Below, piece by piece: positions 27,173-40,618 of a DNA stretch of 41,741 nt. The stretch is taken from IMG/VR virus record IMGVR_UViG_3300045988_117301. One strand, 5' to 3'. The first letter of the stretch is position 1. Every line of letters begins with the position of its first letter. Both the position numbers and the translations under genes were made by a program. This DNA comes from a virus. Its lineage: Duplodnaviria; Heunggongvirae; Uroviricota; Caudoviricetes. Below the pieces are notes generated by a model, which was given only the letters and a program-made list of their open reading frames with translations, did no database searches and had not been told where the DNA came from.

Positions 27173-28225
27173 TTATTTCCCCACCAGCTCGTTTATCTCT
27201 TTCACTGTCTGGTTAAACCGCTCTGACTCAAGCTCAACACCTAAGGCCCGACGCCCCAGCGCCATTGCTGCTTTTATTGTGGAACCGGAGCCCATAAAAA
27301 AATCAGCAACCAGATCACCTGGTCGACTACTGGCATTGATTATTTGCCTGAGCATATCCGCCGGTTTCTCACACGGATGTTTCCCCGGGTAGAACTGAAC
27401 GGGTTTATGCATCCAGACGTCGGTATAAGGCACGGAAACTGATACGGAGAAATAGCGCCGGAGAGTTTTAAACTCATCCAGCAATTCATAATATTTGCGA
27501 TTCAGTGAATCATAAGATGCCACCAGCTGGTGGTGTGGTTGTTCCAGTTGTTTTTCCTGAAACTTCTCTGCCGCTATACGGGAAAACAGTGCCTGCAACT
27601 TCCGGTAGTCAGCCTCATTCGGCAACTGCCACTGACTGGCACCAAACCAGTGGGAAACCATATTTTTCTTACCAGTGGCTTCGGCAATCTGTTTTGCCGT
27701 TATACCCAGTTCGGCACGAGCATCCCTGAAATACGATATCAGCGGTGCCATTATGTGCTGTTTGAGTTCCCTTTCTTTTGCCGCATAGCCGTCACTTTTG
27801 CCGCGATATGGCCCCTGGTAATGTTCAGCAAACAGAACGCGCTCTGTGGCAGGAAAATATGCGCGCAGACTTTCTTTATTACACCCATTCCAACGTCCGG
27901 ACGGCTTCGCCCAGATGATATGGTTAAGCACGTTGAAACGTTCACGCATCATGATCTCAATATCAGATGCCAGGCGATGCCCACAGAACAGGTAAAGGCT
28001 TCCGGCAGGTTTCAACACCCGCCAGAACTGGGCCAGACAGTGGTCCAGCCACTTAAGGTAATCTTCGTCCCCTTTCCACTGATTGTCCCAGCCGTTGGGT
28101 TTCACCTTGAAGTAAGGCGGATCGGTAACAATCAGGTCAATGGAATCATCAGGCAGGGACTGAATAAAATGCAGGCAATCAGCGTTGATTAAATCAACAC
28201 TGTTTATTTTTACAGTATTTTTCAT
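27173..28225 (-). CDS. Orphan DNA methyltransferase, beta-class (DPPY motif; likely N6-adenine)
   Basis: 350 aa; motif [10 protein letters not shown] near N-terminus, AdoMet motif FFMGSGST near C-terminus; no adjacent restriction endonuclease. Confidence 0.85.
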
Positions 28226-28375
28226 GGATCAGTAAGCGTAACTCTGGTAGGCTCACTCTGCTTTTGCGCTAAAGCAGTGGGCCGTGGTTCGCTTGTGACC
28301 AGTAGGCATGAGCGAATGGCTGGCAGGTGCTACCAACACCCACCAGCCGCCCATTTTCACAGCAGGAAACCGCCA

Positions 28376-28603
28376 TTACTGGCAGCGTCTGAATTTATTC
28401 CCGTACCCGCCGTTATCCTTCGCCAGACCCGCCAGAACTAACTGAGTCAGTATTAACTGGCACCGGGCTTCGCTTACTCCGGTAGTTCTCGTCATCATGC
28501 GTGGCGTTACCCACTTGTCAGCAGGTAAGAAATGAAGGACTGCGGCGGCGGTTTCTGTCATATCTTGCTGTTTTAGCATGTCTTTTTCCCTTCTGGTTAA
28601 CAT
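28376..28603 (-). CDS. Hypothetical small protein, possible winged-helix regulator
   Basis: 75-aa ORF with ATG start upstream of the methyltransferase; helix-rich segment TGVSEARCQLILTQLVLAGLAKD. Confidence 0.4.
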   Translation of the reverse strand: MLTRREKDMLKQQDMTETAAAVLHFLPADKWVTPRMMTRTTGVSEARCQLILTQLVLAGLAKDNGGYGNKFRRCQ

Positions 28604-28849
28604 GACATACCAATAACTCTTGTCTAAAAAGCCAGCAAGATAAAAGGTCAGTATTCACGACCACCAGCGTGTTTACTGTACTGCACCAAGTTTACAGGTA
28701 CAAAAAAACCGCTCAGCGGCGGGTTTAAGTTGTGTGGCGAAGTAACCACTCTTAACAGCATATTTGATTTTTTACGATTGTAAACGGTTGATTATTCATC
28801 TCCAATAAAAATAATTGTGTAGGTATGCCCTTAACAATGGATAAGAAAC

Positions 28850-29296
28850 ATGAATAAAATGACTGTACTATTACTTAGCGCAACTATCATTTCAGGTTGT
28901 ACTTCTTCCGTACCATTGATAAAAAAAACTCAATCAGGAAAACCTGAGGGGGTTTATCAAAATACGACAAAAGATAAAGTCAAAGATGCCCTTGTGAATT
29001 ACTGCAATAGTAGAGGGTTGATAATTTACAACGCTGATAACAGCAGTGTTATATGTGGTAAAGAACTGGAAGGCGGGTCTGCTGTTTTTGGACAAATGTT
29101 AATCGGCAATGCCTATTCAACAACCCCGGTATCAAAAGTCAGATTTACTATCGCTCAAGTTAATAACGATACAAAAGTGTGGGCCGATATGTGGATGGAA
29201 ACTCAAATGGCAATGGGGCAAGTACAACAAATGGCTATAACAGACAACGCAAGCAAAAACACTATCCAACAACGTCTTGATGAATTAAAACCTTAA
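28850..29296 (+). CDS. AT-rich moron lipoprotein
   Basis: 148 aa; signal peptide with lipobox IISGC (Cys17); markedly AT-rich codon usage; opposite strand to surrounding late genes. Confidence 0.65.
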   Translation: MNKMTVLLLSATIISGCTSSVPLIKKTQSGKPEGVYQNTTKDKVKDALVNYCNSRGLIIYNADNSSVICGKELEGGSAVFGQMLIGNAYSTTPVSKVRFTIAQVNNDTKVWADMWMETQMAMGQVQQMAITDNASKNTIQQRLDELKP

Positions 29297-29316
29297 GTAA
29301 ATTAATTAAATAAAAT

Positions 29317-29338
29317 GGGGAGAATAAATCGACTCCCC
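29317..29338 (-). terminator. Terminator hairpin about 45 nt downstream of Q (tR'-like); may also end the lipoprotein transcript
   Basis: Stem GGGGAG/CTCCCC (29317-29322 and 29333-29338), 10-nt loop; minus strand followed by TTTTATTTAATT. Confidence 0.55.
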
Positions 29339-29380
29339 ACACATTAAACTGATTCAATTACCCCCTCAATAAGAGGTCTT

Positions 29381-29746
29381 CTAACGATCCATCTCTAGCT
29401 CAATTTCTAACATCATTAACATGCCATCAACTACACCTTCAGCCTTTTGCAATAAACGCCCAACCCAGCAATCAGAACGCCCATGTTTACGGGCAAGCGC
29501 CATAAACGTCATACCACCTACATAATAATCCACTAATAAATCGTGCAAATCGCTGTTGTTCTTTTTCAGGCGAGCCATGCACCCACAAATGATCATCGCA
29601 TCATCGTCACAACATTGCGGGCGGGATTTTACTTTTGAAGGGATTAGTCCTTTAAATCCTGCAGCAATAGACGACCAGGTGACATCCTCGTGATTATTTG
29701 CCACCCATGCCCCCCAACGTTCAAGAACCATTTGAATATCACGCAT
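29381..29746 (-). CDS. Q: Late antiterminator Q (phage 82 / QuuD-type)
   Basis: [34 protein letters not shown]...[32 protein letters not shown] matches QuuD as recalled; start taken at ATG 29746 (track start is TTG 29761). Confidence 0.85.
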
Positions 29747-29763
29747 CAACGTTCTCCACAAAA

Positions 29764-30759
29764 TCAGGCCAGCACGCCAATTGCCAGCGCACGATCGATA
29801 AAACGAAATATCAGCTCCAGCTGGGAGCCATACTTCTCTTCAAATGCCACGGTATCCGCATGCAGCTCGTCGTGATGCTTTCTGCACAAAGGCAACACAA
29901 AGAGGTCATGCGCTTTTGTACCCATTCCCCCCTGACCGTGGCCTATCAGGTGGTGGGGATCATCAGCAGGCTTTCCACAACATGCACACGGCTGTGTCTT
30001 AACCCAGCGTGTGTACTTTTCATTAACCCAGCGGCGACGTTTTGGGCGTAACATAAAAGACTCCGGCGACTCCGGATCCACTTTCAGCGCCAGCACCTTT
30101 TTCGCCTTATCCTGGATGATGCTGGTGGCAGGAACCGAAGGCACAAGGTCACTTTCCCGGGTGACAGACGGCACAACAGGCTTCGGTAATCTCAGTGCCT
30201 TACGGGCTGCACTTTCCGGTAAGGCATCCGCCAGGTCATTACGAATCAGCCACCAGCACAGTTCCGGCATTGTCACAACGTGACTATCATCAAAACCGAG
30301 ATCCCGACGCACAACAGACAACACCCAGCGGGCACAGTTATCCGTTGCCATTGATTCCAGCCGTTCCGTGAACTGATCGCGCAGCTGGTTATCGCAGTGC
30401 CAGCACAGACGGATTGCGCCCGGCGCGTGTCGCATTGTTGTCATGTTCTCGCTGTGCCAGTCGGAATGAGGCCACTGGCAGCCTTTTTCACGAAGTAACC
30501 AGCTTTCAAGACATTCCACGCCACCAGCACGACGGATCACTTCCTCATTGCGGAACACGGCCCGAACGGCAGGATCATCCGCCAGCGGTTGTGATGCCGC
30601 CGGAACGACACCACTGGCGAAAGATGAATAACGTTCCGGCTCAGGCTCCAGCAGGACACGCCCCTGCATAAACAGGGGCATCAGCTCTGAACCTGGCCTG
30701 AACAATACGATCCCCATACGCGGGGCAATTTCAGGGGTCAGTAGTGCTCTCACGGTCAC
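29764..30759 (-). CDS. DUF968-like protein with C-terminal HNH-type nuclease motif
   Basis: 331 aa; C-terminal [43 protein letters not shown]; lies upstream of Q as in Qin/Rac-type prophages. Confidence 0.7.
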
Positions 30760-34261: not shown

Positions 34262-34482
34262 GCTGCACCTCCGAGATGCTTCATGTTTTTTCCGGAGCAA
34301 AAGGCTATAAGCGGCATACTGATGCGGTAATTACGGCCCAGCGGTTCACAAATCACCTTCTGACATTCACGGTCAACCAGGCTGACACGTAGAACATGCC
34401 CTGCAGGCGTGGTGTACCACTGACCAGGACGAGGACAACGGAAAGTCTGATTGGTAAACCGTTTGAAAATATTCCGGATCAT
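34258..34482 (-). CDS. Hypothetical small protein (translationally coupled)
   Basis: 74-aa ORF whose start and stop both overlap neighbouring genes (ATGA overlaps). Confidence 0.4.
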   Translation of the reverse strand: MIRNIFKRFTNQTFRCPRPGQWYTTPAGHVLRVSLVDRECQKVICEPLGRNYRISMPLIAFCSGKNMKHLGGAA

Positions 34483-35630
34483 TTGCGCCCCCTTACCTCT
34501 GAAGGGTTCAGCGACAAATTTATGAGGCAGGCCAGTGCCGAAGCATCATTAATATAGTCATACAAGCTAACAGCCAGCGGAGATTCGGCTTTTGCCAACA
34601 TAGGATAAAGCTGCTGCAGCCAGACCTGATGAATTGATGAAATGTAGGAATAGAGAACGCTGGCGTTATGTGCAACGTCGCTCAGTACAGAGGGATTTGA
34701 AAGCTGTTTCTCCATCTGGTTAAAGGCATTGATGTATGCCTCTTTGAACTGGGCAGCACGTTTACCCGTGAACCCCATAGCAAGAAACGCAAAGCCGTCG
34801 CGGGTTATTTGATAGCAAGGTAGTTTGCGGCCTGTGCAATCGGTGTAATCACTCACCGAAAAATTGCGGGCAGTGAATGATGCAGAGCATTCAAGCGTGC
34901 GGATCTTTTTCAGTACATCGTCATGACGTTTGGAGAAGAAGTTGGCAACAGCCAGGGATGAAGTAACAGCCTGACCATCAACGATGGCAATTTCAGGTTG
35001 AGTGAGGGTTGGGATCGTAGCCATGATGGCAGCCTCTTTGGTGATTTTTAATAACTCACCACCAAGGCTTTCCACGACCTTATTGGTGGTGAGACGTACA
35101 GGGGTGGAAATACCGGTCACCAAAGAACCCGGCCCAACCGAAGTTGGCCCTGCACGCCCCACCATAATTTGGGCGTAATGCTGCTCATTACACAAAAAAA
35201 CCGCAAGAGCGCGGTTGTGCGCTTTGGTGAATTCCGGGTTTCCACGCCCGGCACCCGCTTTATAAGGTGCCTGAACAGTGTAACGTCCCGGAATGGCAGA
35301 ATCAATGTGCTGGTGGTCCTTCACACTCAACAAAATCATGCCTGAATTTCCACAAAGGACTAAAGCACTCATGCGGGTAGTCTTTGCGAAGATAGATAAC
35401 GCGCTGTGTTTCTGGCTCCCAACGAATAACATGGACATAAAGCCCTCTTCCGTCACGAAACCAGCGGTTAAGTTCCTGCACAACTCGCCCCCCACAGTCA
35501 GGTAAAGTTCTCTGTGGTTACTTACAGCCAGGTGATTTGGTAATCTGCATTCATACCGTAACAACAGGTGTTCAGCGACACTGACCACCAGCTGTTGCGA
35601 CAAACGGTTATTTGCCGTTAAACTGTTCAT
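34479..35630 (-). CDS. Rha-family regulatory protein with a 200-aa in-frame N-terminal extension of unknown function
   Basis: ATG 35630 overlaps cII-like stop (ATGA); internal ATG 35027 with Shine-Dalgarno AAGAGG precedes the Rha-like part (MATIPTLTQPEIAIVDGQAVTSSLAVANFFSKRHDDVLKKIR...). Confidence 0.6.
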   Translation of the reverse strand: MNSLTANNRLSQQLVVSVAEHLLLRYECRLPNHLAVSNHRELYLTVGGELCRNLTAGFVTEEGFMSMLFVGSQKHSALSIFAKTTRMSALVLCGNSGMILLSVKDHQHIDSAIPGRYTVQAPYKAGAGRGNPEFTKAHNRALAVFLCNEQHYAQIMVGRAGPTSVGPGSLVTGISTPVRLTTNKVVESLGGELLKITKEAAIMATIPTLTQPEIAIVDGQAVTSSLAVANFFSKRHDDVLKKIRTLECSASFTARNFSVSDYTDCTGRKLPCYQITRDGFAFLAMGFTGKRAAQFKEAYINAFNQMEKQLSNPSVLSDVAHNASVLYSYISSIHQVWLQQLYPMLAKAESPLAVSLYDYINDASALACLINLSLNPSEVRGRK

Positions 35631-36178
35631 GCGTTAGTTTCTCCACAGACACAAAACGCCACGACGCCCGGAGCTGCACACTCGCGGGCGTCACTCTTTT
35701 CTGGAGCGCAGAAGATTTTGTAGACCAGTGCTGCATGCTCCTGGAGCTTCGAAATTGACAGATACAACTCATCATTAATTGCTGTCTGCTCGTGTGGCTC
35801 CACGACCCCATCTTCGATTGCCGAACGAATCTGCTTTGAGTAATTCCCGATCTGTTCGATGACTTCCAGCAGGCGCTGGTTTATATCGGCGTTCTCTACT
35901 TCCTCAATTTCAGGAAGCGATACGAACACCCCACCAGCAGACTGTGCGACAGCATCCGCAATGTAGTGAGTGCCAGCCGCGCGCTGTAAAACCATTGCCC
36001 ATCCCAGCGGGAAAATCTGATCGCCATCTGCACGAAGGCGGTTGAATAAAGCGTTCTCTGTTACATCCAGCCAGTCAGCAGCTTCAGCGTAACCCCCAGG
36101 CAATGCCGCGATAGTTTTTCTGACAGCTTTCACGTACCACTCAGGTTGTTTTTCCACTTTCCAATGATGCTTACCCAC
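35627..36178 (-). CDS. CII-like / YdaT-like early regulatory protein
   Basis: 183 aa directly downstream of cro; GTG start with Shine-Dalgarno AGGAGG. Confidence 0.5.
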   Translation of the reverse strand: MGKHHWKVEKQPEWYVKAVRKTIAALPGGYAEAADWLDVTENALFNRLRADGDQIFPLGWAMVLQRAAGTHYIADAVAQSAGGVFVSLPEIEEVENADINQRLLEVIEQIGNYSKQIRSAIEDGVVEPHEQTAINDELYLSISKLQEHAALVYKIFCAPEKSDARECAAPGVVAFCVCGETNA

Positions 36179-36431
36179 GGCTTACCTCCTGTTCCTGTGG
36201 TTTAAACCCATTCTGGTTTTGGCTAGATTGAAAACGTGCCGGATAAAGAATCTGCATTTCGCTGATTTCACCCTTAAAAAAATTGGCCAGACGTTCTGCA
36301 AGATCGATAGATGGAATTTGTTCCAGTCTTTCAATACGACTCAGCGTCGCTGGATTGACCTGAACGCCCGCAGCAACATGCTGCAAAGTAAATCCGTGCG
36401 CCTTACGCACATTCCGTAATGGTGATTGCAT
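36171..36431 (-). CDS. cro: Cro-like HTH repressor
   Basis: 86 aa, XRE-type HTH (FTLQHVAAGVQVNPATLSRIERLE); divergent from cI; Shine-Dalgarno GGAGG. Confidence 0.8.
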   Translation of the reverse strand: MQSPLRNVRKAHGFTLQHVAAGVQVNPATLSRIERLEQIPSIDLAERLANFFKGEISEMQILYPARFQSSQNQNGFKPQEQEVSRG

Positions 36432-36445
36432 ATAACCTCCACATA

Positions 36446-36522
36446 TTGCGTGATGAGCATATTATTTCACGCAAATATTTTGCGCAAGTTGATTTGCTTA
36501 ACGCGCAATAAAGAAATGTAAT
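36446..36522. promoter_or_regulatory. Immunity control region: operator sites TTGC-N7-GCAA (36446-36460, 36494-36508), palindrome CGCAAAtatTTTGCG (36469-36483), PR for cro and PRM for cI
   Basis: Minus strand -35 TTGCGC / 17 bp / -10 TAATAT upstream of cro; plus strand -35 TTGCTT (36494-36499) / 17 bp / -10 TGTAAT (36517-36522) ending a few nt before the cI ATG. Confidence 0.5.
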
Positions 36523-36528
36523 AAACGC

Positions 36529-37221
36529 ATGAACATAGGAAATCGAGTCAGACAACTTCGCCAGGCGAAGAACATGAAAATCGCCGATCTCGCTGAAGCA
36601 ATAGGAGTGGATGCGGCGAATATCTCGCGCCTCGAAACAGGTAAGCAGAAACAATTCACTGAACAAGCCCTGAGTAATATTGCCAGGAGCTTAGGTGTTG
36701 ATATTGCTGATCTCTTTACCTCAGACCTCAAAAGTAATACTGTATGTAAAAACAGTATTAGTGAGGATGTTGCGCAGGTGAAGGATGTATTCCGTATTGA
36801 AATGCTGGATGTCAGTGCCAGTGCGGGAAATGGCCTTATCCAGGGCGGTGATGTCATTGATGTGATTCATGCCATTGAATACAGAACTGATAATGCTGTA
36901 TCGATGTTTGGTGGACGACCAGCAAATCACATTAAAGTTATCAACGTTCGTGGGGACAGTATGTGTCCAACCATTGAGCCAGGAGATCTCATCTTCGTTG
37001 ATATCAGTATCAATCAGTTTGATGGGGATGGTATATATGTATTTGGTTTTGATGATAAAATTTACGTCAAACGACTGCAAATGATACCTGATAAACTGCT
37101 GGTAATTTCTGATAATCAGATTTACCGCGAATGGGGAATTACCAGCGAAAACGAACACCGGTTTATGGTCTTTGGAAAGGTCTTAATCAGTCAGTCACAG
37201 ACCCTTAAGCGACACAATTAA
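36529..37221 (+). CDS. cI: CI-type repressor (HTH_XRE N-terminus, S24 LexA-like autopeptidase C-terminus)
   Basis: 230 aa; N-terminal HTH (MKIADLAEAIGVDAANISRLETGKQ), C-terminal RGDSMCPTIEPGD Ser motif and downstream VKRL Lys; candidate Ala-Gly cleavage site in SASAGNG. Confidence 0.9.
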   Translation: MNIGNRVRQLRQAKNMKIADLAEAIGVDAANISRLETGKQKQFTEQALSNIARSLGVDIADLFTSDLKSNTVCKNSISEDVAQVKDVFRIEMLDVSASAGNGLIQGGDVIDVIHAIEYRTDNAVSMFGGRPANHIKVINVRGDSMCPTIEPGDLIFVDISINQFDGDGIYVFGFDDKIYVKRLQMIPDKLLVISDNQIYREWGITSENEHRFMVFGKVLISQSQTLKRHN

Positions 37222-37242
37222 CCCCCTACCTCAACATCAATT

Positions 37243-37267
37243 AGCCACCAGAAGGTGGCTTTTCATT
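37243..37267 (+). terminator. Rho-independent terminator after cI
   Basis: Stem AGCCACC/GGTGGCT with loop agaa, followed by TTTCATT. Confidence 0.6.
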
Positions 37268-37277
37268 ACCCACCAAA

Positions 37278-37329
37278 TTGCTTATCTCGCAATAAAACAC
37301 TTGCATAATGCGCAACTTCATTTTATCTT
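37278..37329 (+). promoter_or_regulatory. OL/pL candidate: two operator sites TTGCTTATCTCGCAA (37278-37292) and TTGCATAATGCGCAA (37301-37315) with -35 TTGCAT and -10 TATCTT
   Basis: Same TTGC-N7-GCAA motif as in the cI-cro intergenic region; 17-bp promoter spacing; rightward toward the early-left genes. Confidence 0.4.
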
Positions 37330-37740
37330 TCTCTCCAGACCTACAAACAAGGTACTAACAAAATTTGGTTGTAACACGGCGTATGGCACATGCGTCGTTA
37401 GCGGTCTGGGGACGTTAAAGGGGACAATCCACTCCTTGCTCGGGCAAACAAACCAGGTAGCCGGAATGTGCAAGTCAATGAGGATGCTGATAAGACGCCT
37501 AACCAGCGTGGCGATCCGGTTTGACGCCTGGGAAGAGACCAGGGTGCAACGATGAGGGCATTTATGGAACCGCGACAAAGTGTGGTGCCGTAACTGGCTA
37601 AGTGCTCTCAGCGTTGTGGTAATCCGCGAAATGGCGCGGCGGTAAGTATGGCGGGGTTACTCTTTCCCCGTTGAGGACACCGGATTGTCAGGTTGACCAT
37701 ACGCCTGAGTGACAACCCCACCACAACAGCCACTGCTTTG

Positions 37741-37788
37741 GCGGTACCAGTTTGTACACTTGCTTCCGGCTGGTACCGCTCTTTTTAC
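37741..37788 (+). terminator. Strong hairpin plus T-run in the early-left leader (tL-like terminator)
   Basis: Perfect 10-bp stem GCGGTACCAG/CTGGTACCGC with 19-nt loop, followed by TCTTTTTAC. Confidence 0.45.
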
Positions 37789-37875
37789 AAAACAGAGAAG
37801 AGCATCACCGGACGACGGGCTCATAACCCAATCCATCCGGGCGGCTGCCACCGCAGGTGTTCTTCTCTGTTTTGT
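37787..37875 (+). other. Long imperfect inverted repeat (18-bp arms, 17/18 paired, 53-nt structured loop); candidate structured RNA or regulatory element
   Basis: ACAAAACAGAGAAGAGCA (37787-37804) pairs with TGTTCTTCTCTGTTTTGT (37858-37875); no ORF explains it. Confidence 0.3.
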
Positions 37876-37999
37876 GGAGAAACTAACCGCCCCTACGGGG
37901 GCATTTATGGAAATGTAATTGACTCAATAATCGCCGGACGGTGAGGGCTTCCTTTTACCCGAATTCAGCGCGGTGCAGCGCATATACGTGGAGAACAAA

Positions 38000-38536
38000 A
38001 TGTCATTTATTAAAACTTTTTCCGGGAAGCATTTTTATTATGACAGGATAAATAAAGACGACATCGTTATTAACGATATCGCGGTTTCCCTTTCAAATAT
38101 CTGTCGCTTTGCAGGACATCTTTCACACTTCTACAGTGTCGCCCAACATGCGGTGCTTTGCAGCCAGCTGGTGCCGCAGGAATTTGCTTTTGAAGCGTTA
38201 ATGCATGATGCAACAGAAGCGTATTGCCAGGACATCCCCGCACCACTGAAACGACTTCTTCCTGACTATAAACGGATGGAAGAAAAAATAGACGCCGTAA
38301 TACGTGAGAAATACGGGTTACCTCCTGTTATGAGCACGCCAGTGAAATATGCCGATCTCATTATGCTGGCAACCGAACGCCGCGATCTCGGGCTTGATGA
38401 TGGCTCTTTCTGGCCTGTACTGGAAGGTATCCCGGCAACAGAGATGTTCAAAGTTATTCCACTGTCGCCAGGCCATGCCTATGGGATGTTTATGGAACGT
38501 TTTAACGAGTTATCGGAGTTACGCAAATGCGCATGA
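38000..38536 (+). CDS. HD-domain phosphohydrolase (YfdR-like)
   Basis: HD motif (ALMHDATEAY); start ATG 38000 with Shine-Dalgarno GGAG (track start is GTG 37973). Confidence 0.8.
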   Translation: MSFIKTFSGKHFYYDRINKDDIVINDIAVSLSNICRFAGHLSHFYSVAQHAVLCSQLVPQEFAFEALMHDATEAYCQDIPAPLKRLLPDYKRMEEKIDAVIREKYGLPPVMSTPVKYADLIMLATERRDLGLDDGSFWPVLEGIPATEMFKVIPLSPGHAYGMFMERFNELSELRKCA

Positions 38537-38889
38537 ATGTTTTCGAAATGGAAGGGTTTCTTCGTGGGAGATGTGTACCGCGAGATCTGAAAGTAAATGA
38601 AACAGATGCTGAATACCTGGCGCGTAAATTCGATGCGCTTGAAGCTAAATGTGCAGCACAGGAAAACAAAGTAATACCAGTGTCAGCTGAACTGCCACCA
38701 GCAAATGAAAGTGTTTTGTTATTCGATGCTAACGGAGAAGGCTGGCTAATTGGCTGGCGTTCTCTCTGGTACACCTGGGAACAAAAAGAAACCGGAGAAT
38801 GGCAGTGGACATTTCAGGTCGGGGACCTTGAAAACGTCAATATCACTCACTGGGCAGTAATGCCAAAAGCACCGGAGGCTGGAGCATAA
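38527..38889 (+). CDS. DUF551-like phage protein (YfdS-like)
   Basis: 120 aa; C-terminal W-rich segment (GWRSLWYTWEQKETGEWQWTF...HWAVMP); stop overlaps next start (TAATG). Confidence 0.5.
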   Translation: MRMNVFEMEGFLRGRCVPRDLKVNETDAEYLARKFDALEAKCAAQENKVIPVSAELPPANESVLLFDANGEGWLIGWRSLWYTWEQKETGEWQWTFQVGDLENVNITHWAVMPKAPEAGA

Positions 38890-39698
38890 TGACCACATTT
38901 ACCGATAAAGAACTGATTAAAGAAATCAAAGAACGAATCAGCAGCATGGACGTGCGAGACAATGTTGAGCGCCGTGCTTATGAAATTGCTCTGGCATCGC
39001 TGGAAGAGGATCCGGTGGCATGGCTGCATTCAGACAATGGCTTAGGTATTCCGGCAATAACTAGGAGTAAAAACATTGCTGACAGTTGGTTATCAAAGGG
39101 CTGGTATGTTCAGCCGCTATATATAGCCAAGCCAGTGCCGGTGGTGCCAGATGCTCGTCCATCTTTAAATAATGGCATAGTCGGTTTTGATGAAGGCTGG
39201 AACGCCTGCCGAGCTGCCATGCTCTATGGTGCCGTACCTGCAAGCCAGGCTTACAAGTTGCCACAAACGCAGTTTAAACAGGTTGCTGACCTCTACGAAA
39301 TGCAATTTGATGACGGTCGCACTTGTACCTTTCACACTGATGCGCAAAAGGCTGTGCAATGGCTTCAGGCGTGCGACGGAAACAGGGTTCAGGAATACGT
39401 TAAGCTGGAACGATTGCAGAACGCACTGTCTGGCAACTCTCCGGTAACTCCGGATGGTTGGGTTATGGTGCCGAAGAGACTAACAGCCGAGAACGGCGCT
39501 AAGGGGGCGCTATCCGGTGAATTTTCAGAAACTACGTTTATAAGCTGCCTGGAATGCTTTGGCGATGATGATTGCGATACCTGTGACGGGAGCGGACGTA
39601 TTGAAATTAAAGTGCCAGTCACGTGGTCGACCATAAAATCTATCTGGGATAAAGGTATCGAGTATTTTGCAGCAAAACCATCACAAGAGGTGAAGTGA
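38889..39698 (+). CDS. Hypothetical protein with C-terminal DnaJ-type CxxCxGxG zinc-ribbon motif (YfdQ-like)
   Basis: 269 aa; CLECFGDDDCDTCDGSGRI near C-terminus. Confidence 0.5.
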   Translation: MTTFTDKELIKEIKERISSMDVRDNVERRAYEIALASLEEDPVAWLHSDNGLGIPAITRSKNIADSWLSKGWYVQPLYIAKPVPVVPDARPSLNNGIVGFDEGWNACRAAMLYGAVPASQAYKLPQTQFKQVADLYEMQFDDGRTCTFHTDAQKAVQWLQACDGNRVQEYVKLERLQNALSGNSPVTPDGWVMVPKRLTAENGAKGALSGEFSETTFISCLECFGDDDCDTCDGSGRIEIKVPVTWSTIKSIWDKGIEYFAAKPSQEVK

Positions 39699-40270: not shown

Positions 40271-40306
40271 TTTTCCCGGGTGCAGCCGGTTTTGATGGAG
40301 AAAATT

Positions 40307-40588
40307 ATGAACACCTTGTTTTTACTGATGGCTGAATTCAATACCCCAAACATTGAACTCTCAGCAGTTAGCCAAAAGTACTTTGGTATGAGTCCAGCCA
40401 CGGCAGAAGCAAAAGCAAACGCTTGTAAGTTGCCCGTTCCAACATATCGCATCGGCACATCACAAAAAGCAAAACGTTGCATCAATATTCAGGATCTTGC
40501 GGAATACATAGACAAAAGGCGAGAAGAAGGACGTATCGAGTGGGAACAGGTCAGAACAGTCAAACAGAAGGGCAAAGAACATCACTAA
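40307..40588 (+). CDS. PrtN-family / excisionase-like small DNA-binding protein
   Basis: MNTLFLLMAEFNTPNIELSAVSQKYFGMSPATAEAKANACKLPVPTYRIG... resembles PrtN-family proteins as recalled; last gene of the early-left operon; Shine-Dalgarno GGAG. Confidence 0.5.
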   Translation: MNTLFLLMAEFNTPNIELSAVSQKYFGMSPATAEAKANACKLPVPTYRIGTSQKAKRCINIQDLAEYIDKRREEGRIEWEQVRTVKQKGKEHH

Positions 40589-40589
40589 A

Positions 40590-40618
40590 GAAAAAACCCG
40601 CCTGAAGGCGGGTTTTCA
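40590..40618. terminator. Bidirectional rho-independent terminator
   Basis: Stem AACCCGCC/GGCGGGTT with loop tgaa, flanked by an A-run upstream and a T-run downstream; between convergent genes. Confidence 0.7.

Follow-up and report, generated by a model that had tools for sequence, protein, structure and literature searches.

We analyzed the early-left region of a lambdoid phage genome, IMG/VR record IMGVR_UViG_3300045988_117301 (Caudoviricetes); the whole stretch of 41,741 nucleotides (nt) is referred to here as the window. Our subject is the leader that separates a pL-like promoter from the first early-left gene. Promoter-like hexamers (-35, TTGCAT, 37301-37306; 17-bp spacer; -10, TATCTT, 37324-37329) place the putative start of the early-left transcript near 37336, and the gene begins with an ATG at 38000, preceded by a Shine-Dalgarno sequence, GGAG, at 37991-37994. 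The leader is thus ~37336-37999. An operator-type motif, TTGCn7GCAA, occurs at 37278-37292 and at 37301-37315, where it overlaps the -35 hexamer, and it recurs at 36494-36508 in the cro-cI interval. Its presence on both sides of the repressor gene is the pattern expected of left and right operators. The features of the region are as follows.

35627-36178, minus strand: gene for a CII/CP76-type protein.
36171-36431, minus strand: gene for a Cro-like helix-turn-helix protein.
36529-37221, plus strand: cI-type repressor gene (helix-turn-helix and S24 peptidase domains).
37243-37260: bidirectional terminator hairpin, 3' of the repressor gene.
37278-37329, plus strand: pL-like promoter with operator-type motifs, recognized by sequence.
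37362-37545, plus strand: element A, a structured RNA of ~185 nt (covariation, IMG/VR loci).
37377-37385/37389-37397: helix P1 of A.
37405-37408/37454-37457: helix P2 of A, around a variable insert.
37495-37498/37506-37509: helix P4 of A, with the 7-nt loop CUAACCA.
37527-37531/37539-37543: helix P5 of A, with the loop GAAGAGA.
37546-37620, plus strand: H hairpin, a long irregular stem (folding, comparison with Qin).
37621-37735, plus strand: module B, a homologue of the body of the 190-nt DicF precursor (sequence identity).
37736-37788, plus strand: module C, a candidate small RNA at the DicF position (stem, 37741-37750/37770-37779; 19-nt loop; U run, 37782-37786).
37787-37875, plus strand: module D, a three-way junction (covariation).
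37787-37806/37856-37875: long stem S1 of D, 20 bp.
37808-37812/37836-37840: stem S2 of D (CCGGR/YCCGG).
37841-37844/37851-37854: stem S3 of D, a variable third arm.
37817-37829: tip hairpin of D, GGGCUCAUAACCC, which resembles an initiator-tRNA anticodon arm.
37888-37903 and 37899-37912, plus strand: GC hairpin E and the second copy of a 14-mer.
37991-38533 (including the Shine-Dalgarno sequence), plus strand: first early-left gene, encoding a YfbR/YfdR-like HD-domain 5'-deoxynucleotidase (Pfam, PHROG).

An initial annotation of this DNA had found no credible open reading frame (ORF) in the leader and nothing N-like, and our results agree. None of the six leader ORFs matched a Pfam family, and no Arg-rich stretch was found (the maximum was 25% Arg plus Lys in any 20 residues). 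Among leader homologues, the variable columns in the three codon phases numbered 45, 43, and 39 of 61, so there is no 3-base periodicity, and the lengths differ by non-multiples of 3. The plus strand of 37336-37920 folds at -233.7 kcal/mol (z = -5.97), a value that none of 100 dinucleotide shuffles equaled, and the minus strand of the same segment gave a z of -3.35 by dinucleotide shuffles. This bears out the structured block that had been reported on the early-left strand, and compensatory changes across dozens of related phages back two of its structures (A and D, below). We concluded that the leader is non-coding and structured.

The leader had been regarded as one unexplained block. We found instead five separately conserved modules that recur in other combinations elsewhere. 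The segment 37230-37900 recurs entire in mEp460 and PhiR40_1-type phages, and ~37357-37900 recurs in cdtI, Ayreon, 2H10, and Stx2c phages, whose immunity regions are different. Shorter segments have matches of their own. For 37363-37540, the match in phage P1 lies directly after the tRNA-Ile2 gene and ~100 nt before ban. Matches to 37376-37619 were found in phiV10 and TL-2011b, and those to 37613-37735 in the K-12 Qin prophage, immediately 5' of dicF, and in the "dicF-like region" of P1. SfII, SfV, and SfIV match 37739-37900, and ST64B matches 37781-37887. Since these parts recur independently, we describe the leader as a mosaic, with its modules named A, H, B, C, D, and E. They sit downstream of cI/DicA-type repressors in mEp460, SfII, cdtI, ST64B, F1055, and pPE4. 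When we used 37230-38010 as a 781-nt query, 4,745 of 5,426 complete Escherichia coli genomes contained a partial match, and 441 contained at least 80% of the query. The feature given in the E. coli records listed for this query is yfdR, a hypothetical protein, or nothing; no RNA gene is given. The Rfam search that the initial annotation had proposed placed neither the leader nor its sub-segments in a family at gathering or lax thresholds. Searches at an E value of ≤10 (951 nt and sub-segments) returned only sub-threshold chance matches of at most 16.6 bits, and at the gathering threshold Rfam 15 reported only C4 and isrK in the whole window, both outside the leader.

We found that the middle of the leader is homologous to the dicF locus of K-12 Qin. 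Module B is 89% identical to Qin (L005, 2252-2374) over 123 nt, in a match that ends 9 nt before dicF, and 75% identical to a P1 stretch that overlaps the "dicF-like region" annotated shortly after the ban promoters (Pban). B aligns with Qin, P1, pPE4, and F1055, and its internal helix GUAUGG/CCAUAC is GCAUGG/CCAUGC in P1. The H hairpin, directly upstream of B, has the layout CAACG-AUGA-GGGCAUUUAUGG ... CUAAGUGCUCUC-AG-CGUUG and a folding energy of -33.3 kcal/mol. An H-type hairpin also precedes B in K-12 Qin (L005, 2173-2258). Thus, at the level of the locus, the DicF arrangement is present: B with an H-type hairpin upstream, in the same position relative to the repressor as in Qin.

The first 17 nt of the DicF hairpin, TTTGGCGGTAyCAGTTT, recur in module C, after which the two sequences differ. 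The perfect 10-bp stem with a T run that had been noted initially was found at the 3' end of C, with 19 nt between the two strands (37741-37750/37770-37779) and TCTTTTT at 37780-37786; in the RNA, the stem followed by UCUUUUU has the architecture of a GC-rich hairpin plus U run. From this sequence, we predict that the C hairpin serves as an intrinsic terminator and closes the 3' end of a small RNA (sRNA), an end that would be of the Hfq type. The sRNA that the initial annotation had offered as an alternative was therefore essentially correct, since the stem and T run are the predicted sRNA 3' hairpin at the DicF position.

In previous work, the 5' end of a 190-nt DicF was reported to be generated by RNase III, the 53-nt form by RNase E, and a 72-nt DicF by RNase III processing of read-through RNA (PMC5069750; bioRxiv 10.1101/2023.04.14.536235). 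We mapped these ends by length. The 5' end of the 190-nt form falls at ~2246 of the Qin sequence (L005), within the 3' strand (2239-2258) of the H-type hairpin, and the 3' end of the 72-nt form falls at ~2454. The latter position belongs to the 5' arm (2442-2458) of a 16-bp stem that begins directly beyond the dicF terminator. Because the Qin RNase III ends fall in the corresponding stems, we take H and D, by analogy, to be putative RNase III sites of this phage, with H marking the 5' end of a putative long DicF-type RNA. Both have the form of RNase III substrates (20 pairs in stem S1 of D and a long stem in H).

To describe the C-D unit, we collected 126 unique D-bearing loci from an IMG/VR scan plus an unbiased scan. 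A T run lies directly before D in 120 of them. The preceding 65 nt form ~23 clusters, referred to here as C alleles. Most C alleles are GGCGG...CCGCC hairpins with compensating stems and pyrimidine-rich loops, and many other C alleles share a single-stranded 5' string, AUUGCUGUGUGUAGUC. In the literature searched for DicF-like variants, we found nothing that describes these C alleles. In pPE4 (L128, vB_Apl-pPE4), the cassette at the DicF position is tandemly duplicated and is followed by a segment much like the K-12 dicF-dicB spacer. This phage carries DicA, Kil, and YdaT-like genes, and its recorded host is Actinobacillus pleuropneumoniae; since its sequence looks enterobacterial, the host label may merit checking.

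Two known kinds of sRNA were considered as the identity of the leader RNA and rejected. svsR has been placed at the 3' end of cI in the lambdoid prophage NC-SV (PMC12803456, PLoS Pathog 2026), a related prophage, and thus outside the leader. The Pas sRNAs, of which the processed PasA-2 form was modelled at 84 nt (bioRxiv 2026), come from late-region loci beside esterase, holin, and lysozyme genes.

Module D begins at the end of C. A long inverted repeat had been reported here, and we found its arms at 37787-37811 and 37851-37875 (25 nt, 84% complementary, 39 nt between). We tested S1, the second stem, the variable third arm, and the tip hairpin in an alignment of 19 D sequences (A3). We found that 94.7% of the cells were paired, with 9 pairs changed on both sides; none of 500 shuffles was as good, and slid controls were 35 to 48% paired. 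S1 was 93.9% paired across the 19 sequences. G.U pairs at two positions of D (7 and 15 sequences) fit the plus strand only, because they become A.C mismatches on the minus strand. No Rfam 15 family matched D, which gave sub-threshold chance matches only. The base CAAC...GUUGUG and the inner GAGRGCAU...RUGCYCUC are common to H and D, which are two versions of one hairpin type. RNAfold carries the D stem on into the U run of C. D is a putative RNase III site and would form a 5' cap for the downstream mRNA.

Element A occupies the promoter-proximal part of the leader and contains an invariant 19-mer, GGTAGCCGGAATGTGCAAG (37456-37474). We scanned IMG/VR with the 19-mer and found at least 120 loci with at least 104 unique sequences. 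We then tested a four-helix model in an alignment of 29 A sequences (A2), picked from representatives that are <93% identical over a wider span. We found that 92% of the cells were paired versus 82% in shuffles, that none of 500 shuffles reached the observed values, and that 11 pairs (62 cells) had changed on both sides. Slid controls, with partners moved by 1 to 3 columns, were only 25 to 54% paired. One position in the fourth hairpin takes four pair types, and the 7-nt loops of two hairpins are conserved (yUmACCA and GAAGAGA). In an alternative given by RNAalifold, two nearly invariant blocks of A pair over a long range and exclude the first hairpin. The local first hairpin is backed by a pair that is G-C in 16 sequences and A-U in 13; the long-range pairing is beyond the covariation test because both blocks are invariant, and as a model it may represent an alternative conformation.

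Among the matches listed, a same-strand tRNA gene abuts A at the equivalent of 37361 or of 37621 in 43 of 124 contexts. Either tRNA-Arg(UCU) starts at the 37621 equivalent or a tRNA with a CAU anticodon, annotated as tRNA-Ile2 in P1, ends at the 37361 equivalent, and these junctions define the ends of A plus H. We found no Rfam family for A, including in a 271-nt search at an E value of ≤10. The invariant A blocks and the D tip were no more complementary to 16S, 23S, and 5S rRNAs than shuffles were, and a full-text literature search with the invariant A strings matched only unrelated Caenorhabditis elegans papers.

Other occurrences of A are worth recording. In phiV10 (L004, 2926-3170) and similar epsilon15-like phages, A, an H hairpin, and tRNA-Arg(UCU) fill the unannotated gap between PhiV10p04 and PhiV10p06; the phiV10 tRNA was detected by ARAGORN and is missing from the feature table of the record there. 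In some IMG/VR phages, a terminator-like hairpin comes after A, and beyond that hairpin is an rrn-type boxA (GCTCTTTAACAATCTGG in L084, GCTCTTTAAAAATCT in L041), a nut-like site next to A of a kind that the window does not have. The 19-mer is also found on contigs assigned to one Oscillospiraceae and one Bacillota metagenome-assembled genome (L226 and L238, genome_contigs). Since all other matches are in Enterobacteriaceae, these are probably mis-binned phage contigs.

Of the smaller GC hairpins noted initially, one was found at 37888-37903 (hairpin E). The initial annotation had also reported an exactly duplicated 14-mer. The duplication holds, and the coordinate of the second copy does not: we found GGGCATTTATGGAA at 37556-37569, where it forms the 5' strand of H, and at 37899-37912 rather than 37889-37902. 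A further partial copy, ACGGTGAGGGC, is at 37938. Taken alone, the duplication is weakly unusual, as two or more matches, at a tolerance of 2 mismatches, were seen in 8 of 100 shuffles. The leader ceases to resemble mEp460-type leaders at 37900 (37230-37900 corresponds to L001, 3001-3692), and a yfdR-type gene cassette begins at 37889; 37889-38010 matches mEp460 1.3 kb further on (L001, 4985-5107), upstream of that phage's own phosphatase gene. This places the second 14-mer copy at a mosaic joint. In the best reading of the duplication, the 5' strand of one recurring hairpin type occurs repeatedly, and the shared copies of the hairpin motif are probably also recombination points.

We consider it probable that the leader RNA is a precursor of several modules from which a DicF-type sRNA is cut out and that the terminator of this sRNA throttles early-left transcription. 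This reading draws on the layout of the region (repressor, bidirectional terminator, promoter with operators, leader, and first gene), the folding bias of the plus strand, the G.U pairs of D, and the homology of B and C to the dicF locus. It also draws on the published RNase III ends of DicF in the matching Qin stems, the T run before D, the ~23 compensated C alleles, the covariation in A and D, the extension of the D stem to the U run, and the non-coding evidence. According to this model, the repressor-controlled pL-like promoter would transcribe a non-coding precursor rightward, with A, H, B, C, and D in that order. After derepression, RNA polymerase would read A-H-B-C, and part of it would stop at the C terminator, giving the sRNA a U-tailed 3' end and lowering early-left expression. 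An RNase III cut in the long H stem would yield a long B plus C form of roughly 170 nt, and further 5' trimming may yield a short form, as RNase E does for DicF. In transcripts that read through, the U run of C would pair into the base of the D stem, and an RNase III cut in D would free the sRNA and leave a structured 5' end on the yfdR-xis mRNA. The sRNA would act in trans on host mRNAs via its variable loop or its 5' region. Dense folding of the 670-nt untranslated stretch would keep Rho from loading, so that no N- or put-type factor would be needed to reach the first gene.

Several observations weigh against this reading. C had no match to the Rfam DicF model (RF00039) at an E value of ≤10 in 951-nt and 191-nt searches, whereas K-12 dicF, the positive control, scored 76.7 bits; we therefore call C a DicF-locus allele and not DicF. 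We see no obvious counterpart here of the AU-rich RNase E site upstream of K-12 DicF. For pairing with the ftsZ start region, RNAduplex gave C a z of +0.24 and the DicF control a z of -1.23, in a test of little power because authentic DicF barely beats shuffles. Only 25 of the 126 unique loci have B upstream of C-D, which makes the Qin-like precursor one of several arrangements. The model gives no reason for the presence of the exact, invariant A 19-mer in 24 species-representative genomes from 12 enterobacterial genera or for a D tip that appears to copy an initiator-tRNA arm. Finally, we infer promoter use, the transcript start, and every cleavage site in this phage from its sequence; termination efficiency, the targets in trans, and protection from Rho are likewise deduced.

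The most novel alternative, which we consider unlikely, is that the leader is a battery of host-directed structured RNAs rather than just an sRNA precursor, with A a new class of phage RNA that acts on a conserved host machine and D a decoy for the readers of tRNA-fMet. The two nearly invariant blocks of A would form either the local hairpin or the long-range helix. A travels with phage tRNA genes in P1-like, epsilon15-like, and lambdoid phages of at least 12 enterobacterial genera; its targets could be RNA polymerase or a tRNA-processing or -targeting enzyme, or A could have the role of a ligand-sensing switch.

A related proposal is that these are RNA mimics, in which the D tip imitates the anticodon arm of initiator tRNA, A is a decoy or sponge, and the hairpins merely package them. 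VapC-type anticodon nucleases cut tRNA-fMet; candidate targets are such a nuclease, methionyl-tRNA synthetase (MetRS), and IF3 with the 30S subunit. We found that the D tip GACGGGCUCAUAACCCAA closely matches the E. coli initiator-tRNA anticodon arm. A local alignment of D with E. coli metZ scored 32, versus 17.3 ± 3.2 and a maximum of 28 in 500 shuffles, and spans the D-arm plus the anticodon arm. In a sample not chosen by the tip, GGG..CAU..CCC is kept. The loop positions 37 and 38, in contrast, vary there (CUCAUAA, CUCAUUC, CCCAUAA), and this variation (AA, UA, UC) would be poorly tolerated in a faithful mimic of an anticodon loop. The tRNA-Ile2(CAU) and tRNA-Arg(UCU) genes that abut A also fit the proposal, as do tRNA-like inserts in other H-type hairpins. 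The H-type hairpin of Salmonella phage F1055 (L126; leader, ~1360-1520) encloses CTGGTTCGATTCCAG, a canonical tRNA T-arm sequence, and holds the T-arm-like GGTTCGATTCC, and an initiator-like GGGCTCATAACCC with the GGG..CAU..CCC motif lies within an H-type hairpin of another phage locus (L167). From such sequences, this class of hairpin seems to package tRNA fragments repeatedly. However, ARAGORN found no tRNA in the window, and the Rfam tRNA model found none in 37780-37915 at an E value of ≤10. The likeness could also reflect descent from a decayed tRNA gene, and no partner protein was found, the weak MetRS-domain match described below being under threshold and without solved-structure support. 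We regard these mimics as improbable.

Processive antitermination by RNA, which the initial annotation had raised after the put RNAs of HK022, fared no better. The put RNAs suppress termination in cis via the zinc-binding domain of the RNA polymerase beta' subunit. According to this proposal, a structured RNA near the promoter, most plausibly A, would bind transcribing RNA polymerase, carry it through the C terminator and later terminators, and replace N. The leader has no N-like ORF and no boxA, and cdtI and mEp460 have the same N-less layout. A starts ~26 nt after the putative transcript start, upstream of the intrinsic terminator, and its invariant unpaired blocks would suit an RNA that contacts a conserved host machine. 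The comparison with HK022 itself argues the other way. A blastn-short search of the leader against HK022 27600-30100 (nun-cI-cro-cII) found nothing beyond 8- to 10-mers, and the core shared by putL and putR, GTCGGGnGCnCGGCG ... AGGATGAnnnnCAATG, which we derived from the HK022 sequence, was not found in the leader even at 3 mismatches. The put format has two stems in ~70 nt, whereas the promoter-proximal A has ~185 nt and at least four covarying helices. Its homologues are often neither promoter-proximal nor before a terminator: in P1, A follows a tRNA and precedes ban; in phiV10, it precedes tRNA-Arg; and elsewhere it follows another H-type hairpin. C-D units, moreover, lack A in most loci. 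We found nothing that supports a put-like role for A and consider it improbable. A lambda-type N/nut system was also rejected, with no Pfam match, no Arg-rich stretch, and no boxA. No boxA/boxB nut site was found in the leader; the only boxA-like string, CGCTCTTT (37777), is the end of the terminator stem plus the U run, and other C alleles carry GTCCTTTTT or GCCCTTTTT in its place.

A function of the opposite strand or of the DNA itself (for example, an antisense RNA to the early-left transcript or a protein or recombination site, with the plus-strand RNA incidental) is very unlikely. The inverted repeats fold on both strands, the mosaic joints coincide with repeated hairpin motifs, and a terminator-like GC hairpin can be read on the minus strand at 37903-37888. 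The minus strand nevertheless folds worse, the G.U pairs of D are lost on it, the tRNAs adjoining A are always on the same strand as A, and the T runs come after the C hairpins on the plus strand. Least probable of all is a hidden small protein, N-like or another regulator, since the several ORFs of 40 to 90 codons, some of them annotated as hypothetical proteins in records, have TTG or GTG starts, no Pfam family, no Arg-rich stretch, and no codon periodicity and vary in strand and extent between related phages, while homologue lengths are not multiples of three and conservation tracks the RNA helices.

Returning to the DicF-type precursor, the closest known system is the Qin dicF locus (dicA-dicBp-ydfABC-dicF-dicB). 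Both are early-left-type operons downstream of a cI/DicA-type repressor, with an H-type hairpin, the 89% identical 115-nt body, a GGCGG...CCGCC plus U run sRNA, and a long stem before the downstream ORF. In contrast to Qin, the sRNA here differs after its first 17 nt and is outside Rfam DicF, element A takes the place of the preceding ydfABC genes, and the downstream genes are yfdR type rather than dicB. The stem after the terminator encloses a tRNA-like junction here and another insert in Qin, and the SfV/cdtI/mEp460-like family includes active phages.

The leader of the P1 ban operon (Pban-"dicF-like region"-trnA trnT-tciABC-trnI-ban) resembles ours in carrying B (68739-68832, overlapping the dicF-like region) and A (71010-71194) on the operon strand, with A one base after trnI and ~100 nt before ban. 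It is unlike ours in that tRNA and protein genes lie in the 2 kb between the modules, H and D are absent, and A has no terminal hairpin. In P1 (L003, 68510-73694), B is followed by a terminator hairpin of its own, and A and B lie in stretches without an annotated gene. HK022 putL and putR share with our leader the setting of a structured, protein-free, putatively cis-transcribed RNA near an early promoter in a lambdoid phage without N function; they differ in sequence, motif, size, and architecture, and A homologues occur away from promoters and terminators.

RNase III hairpins lie between cistrons in T7 early mRNAs, in the lambda N leader and sib, and in the stems of rRNA precursors. H and D resemble these as stems of at least ~20 bp that would flank functional RNAs in a polycistronic phage transcript; a conserved three-way junction whose tip is tRNA-like lies within D, which is atypical of simple RNase III signals. 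The species 1 and 2 RNAs of T4 are stable small RNAs cotranscribed with phage tRNA clusters. A resembles them, in a comparison of architecture only, as a discrete structured RNA that abuts same-strand tRNA genes, and it differs in that ARAGORN found no tRNA in this window. Because A directly abuts same-strand tRNAs elsewhere, RNase P and tRNA 3' processing would define its ends there.

DicF has so far been treated as a relic of defective prophages, and a 2016 search of ~2,000 phage genomes found no DicF or DicB matches (PMC5069750). The dicF-type locus is now found in phage families with active members (mEp460, cdtI, SfII/SfV, ST64B, and Stx2c phages), as a cassette in which conserved processing modules flank an sRNA with ~23 alleles. 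This suggests that phages swap the targeting part of one RNA scaffold, and the C alleles offer a concrete set for a search for host targets. Given the partial matches to the query in most complete E. coli genomes, these RNAs are probably expressed in many strains, including Shiga toxin lysogens. With strong covariation, a wide distribution in phages of Enterobacteriaceae, and no Rfam 15 match, A and D are candidate new RNA families with possible links to tRNA biology. In the literature searched, coverage of which was incomplete, we found no description of either, and RefSeq and phage records show no RNA feature. They are apparently undescribed so far, although a prior description is possible. 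The locus also indicates that a put-like RNA is not required in a lambdoid early-left operon that lacks N.

The product of the first early-left gene matched Pfam YfbR-like with an E value of 2.8e-05 and 24.3 bits, slightly below the curated cutoff of 25.9, and PHROG 318 (deoxyribonucleoside 5' monophosphate phosphatase) with an E value of 6e-110; homologues are labelled yfdR in RefSeq. Further downstream, a strong bidirectional hairpin, AAAAACCCGCCTGAAGGCGGGTTTTC (40592-40617), lies directly 3' of the excisionase gene (40280-40588) and is probably the end of the early-left operon; there is no integrase gene after it in the window. Within the operon, a 269-residue protein (38889-39695, plus strand) belongs to PHROG 60, a family of unknown function, and has a sub-threshold Pfam match (E = 0.011) to the anticodon-binding domain of methionyl-tRNA ligase. 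This match is curious beside a tip resembling a CAU anticodon arm 1 kb upstream; it is below the cutoff and sequences of solved structures give it no support, and we treated it as chance.

On the other side of the immunity region, the Rfam matches to C4 antisense RNA (83.6 bits) and isrK RNA (67 bits) lie at 35082-35270 on the minus strand, inside an ORF of 383 codons (34479-35630), in its N-terminal third. Relatives of this ORF are labelled "Rha" or "transcriptional regulator." The Rha domain covers residues 223 to 308, and the Pfam "Phage_ASH" match at residues 117 to 213 coincides with the C4/isrK DNA. The ORF is probably over-called, the true start likely being the Met of MATIPTL, and Pfam Phage_ASH may partly describe translated RNA genes.

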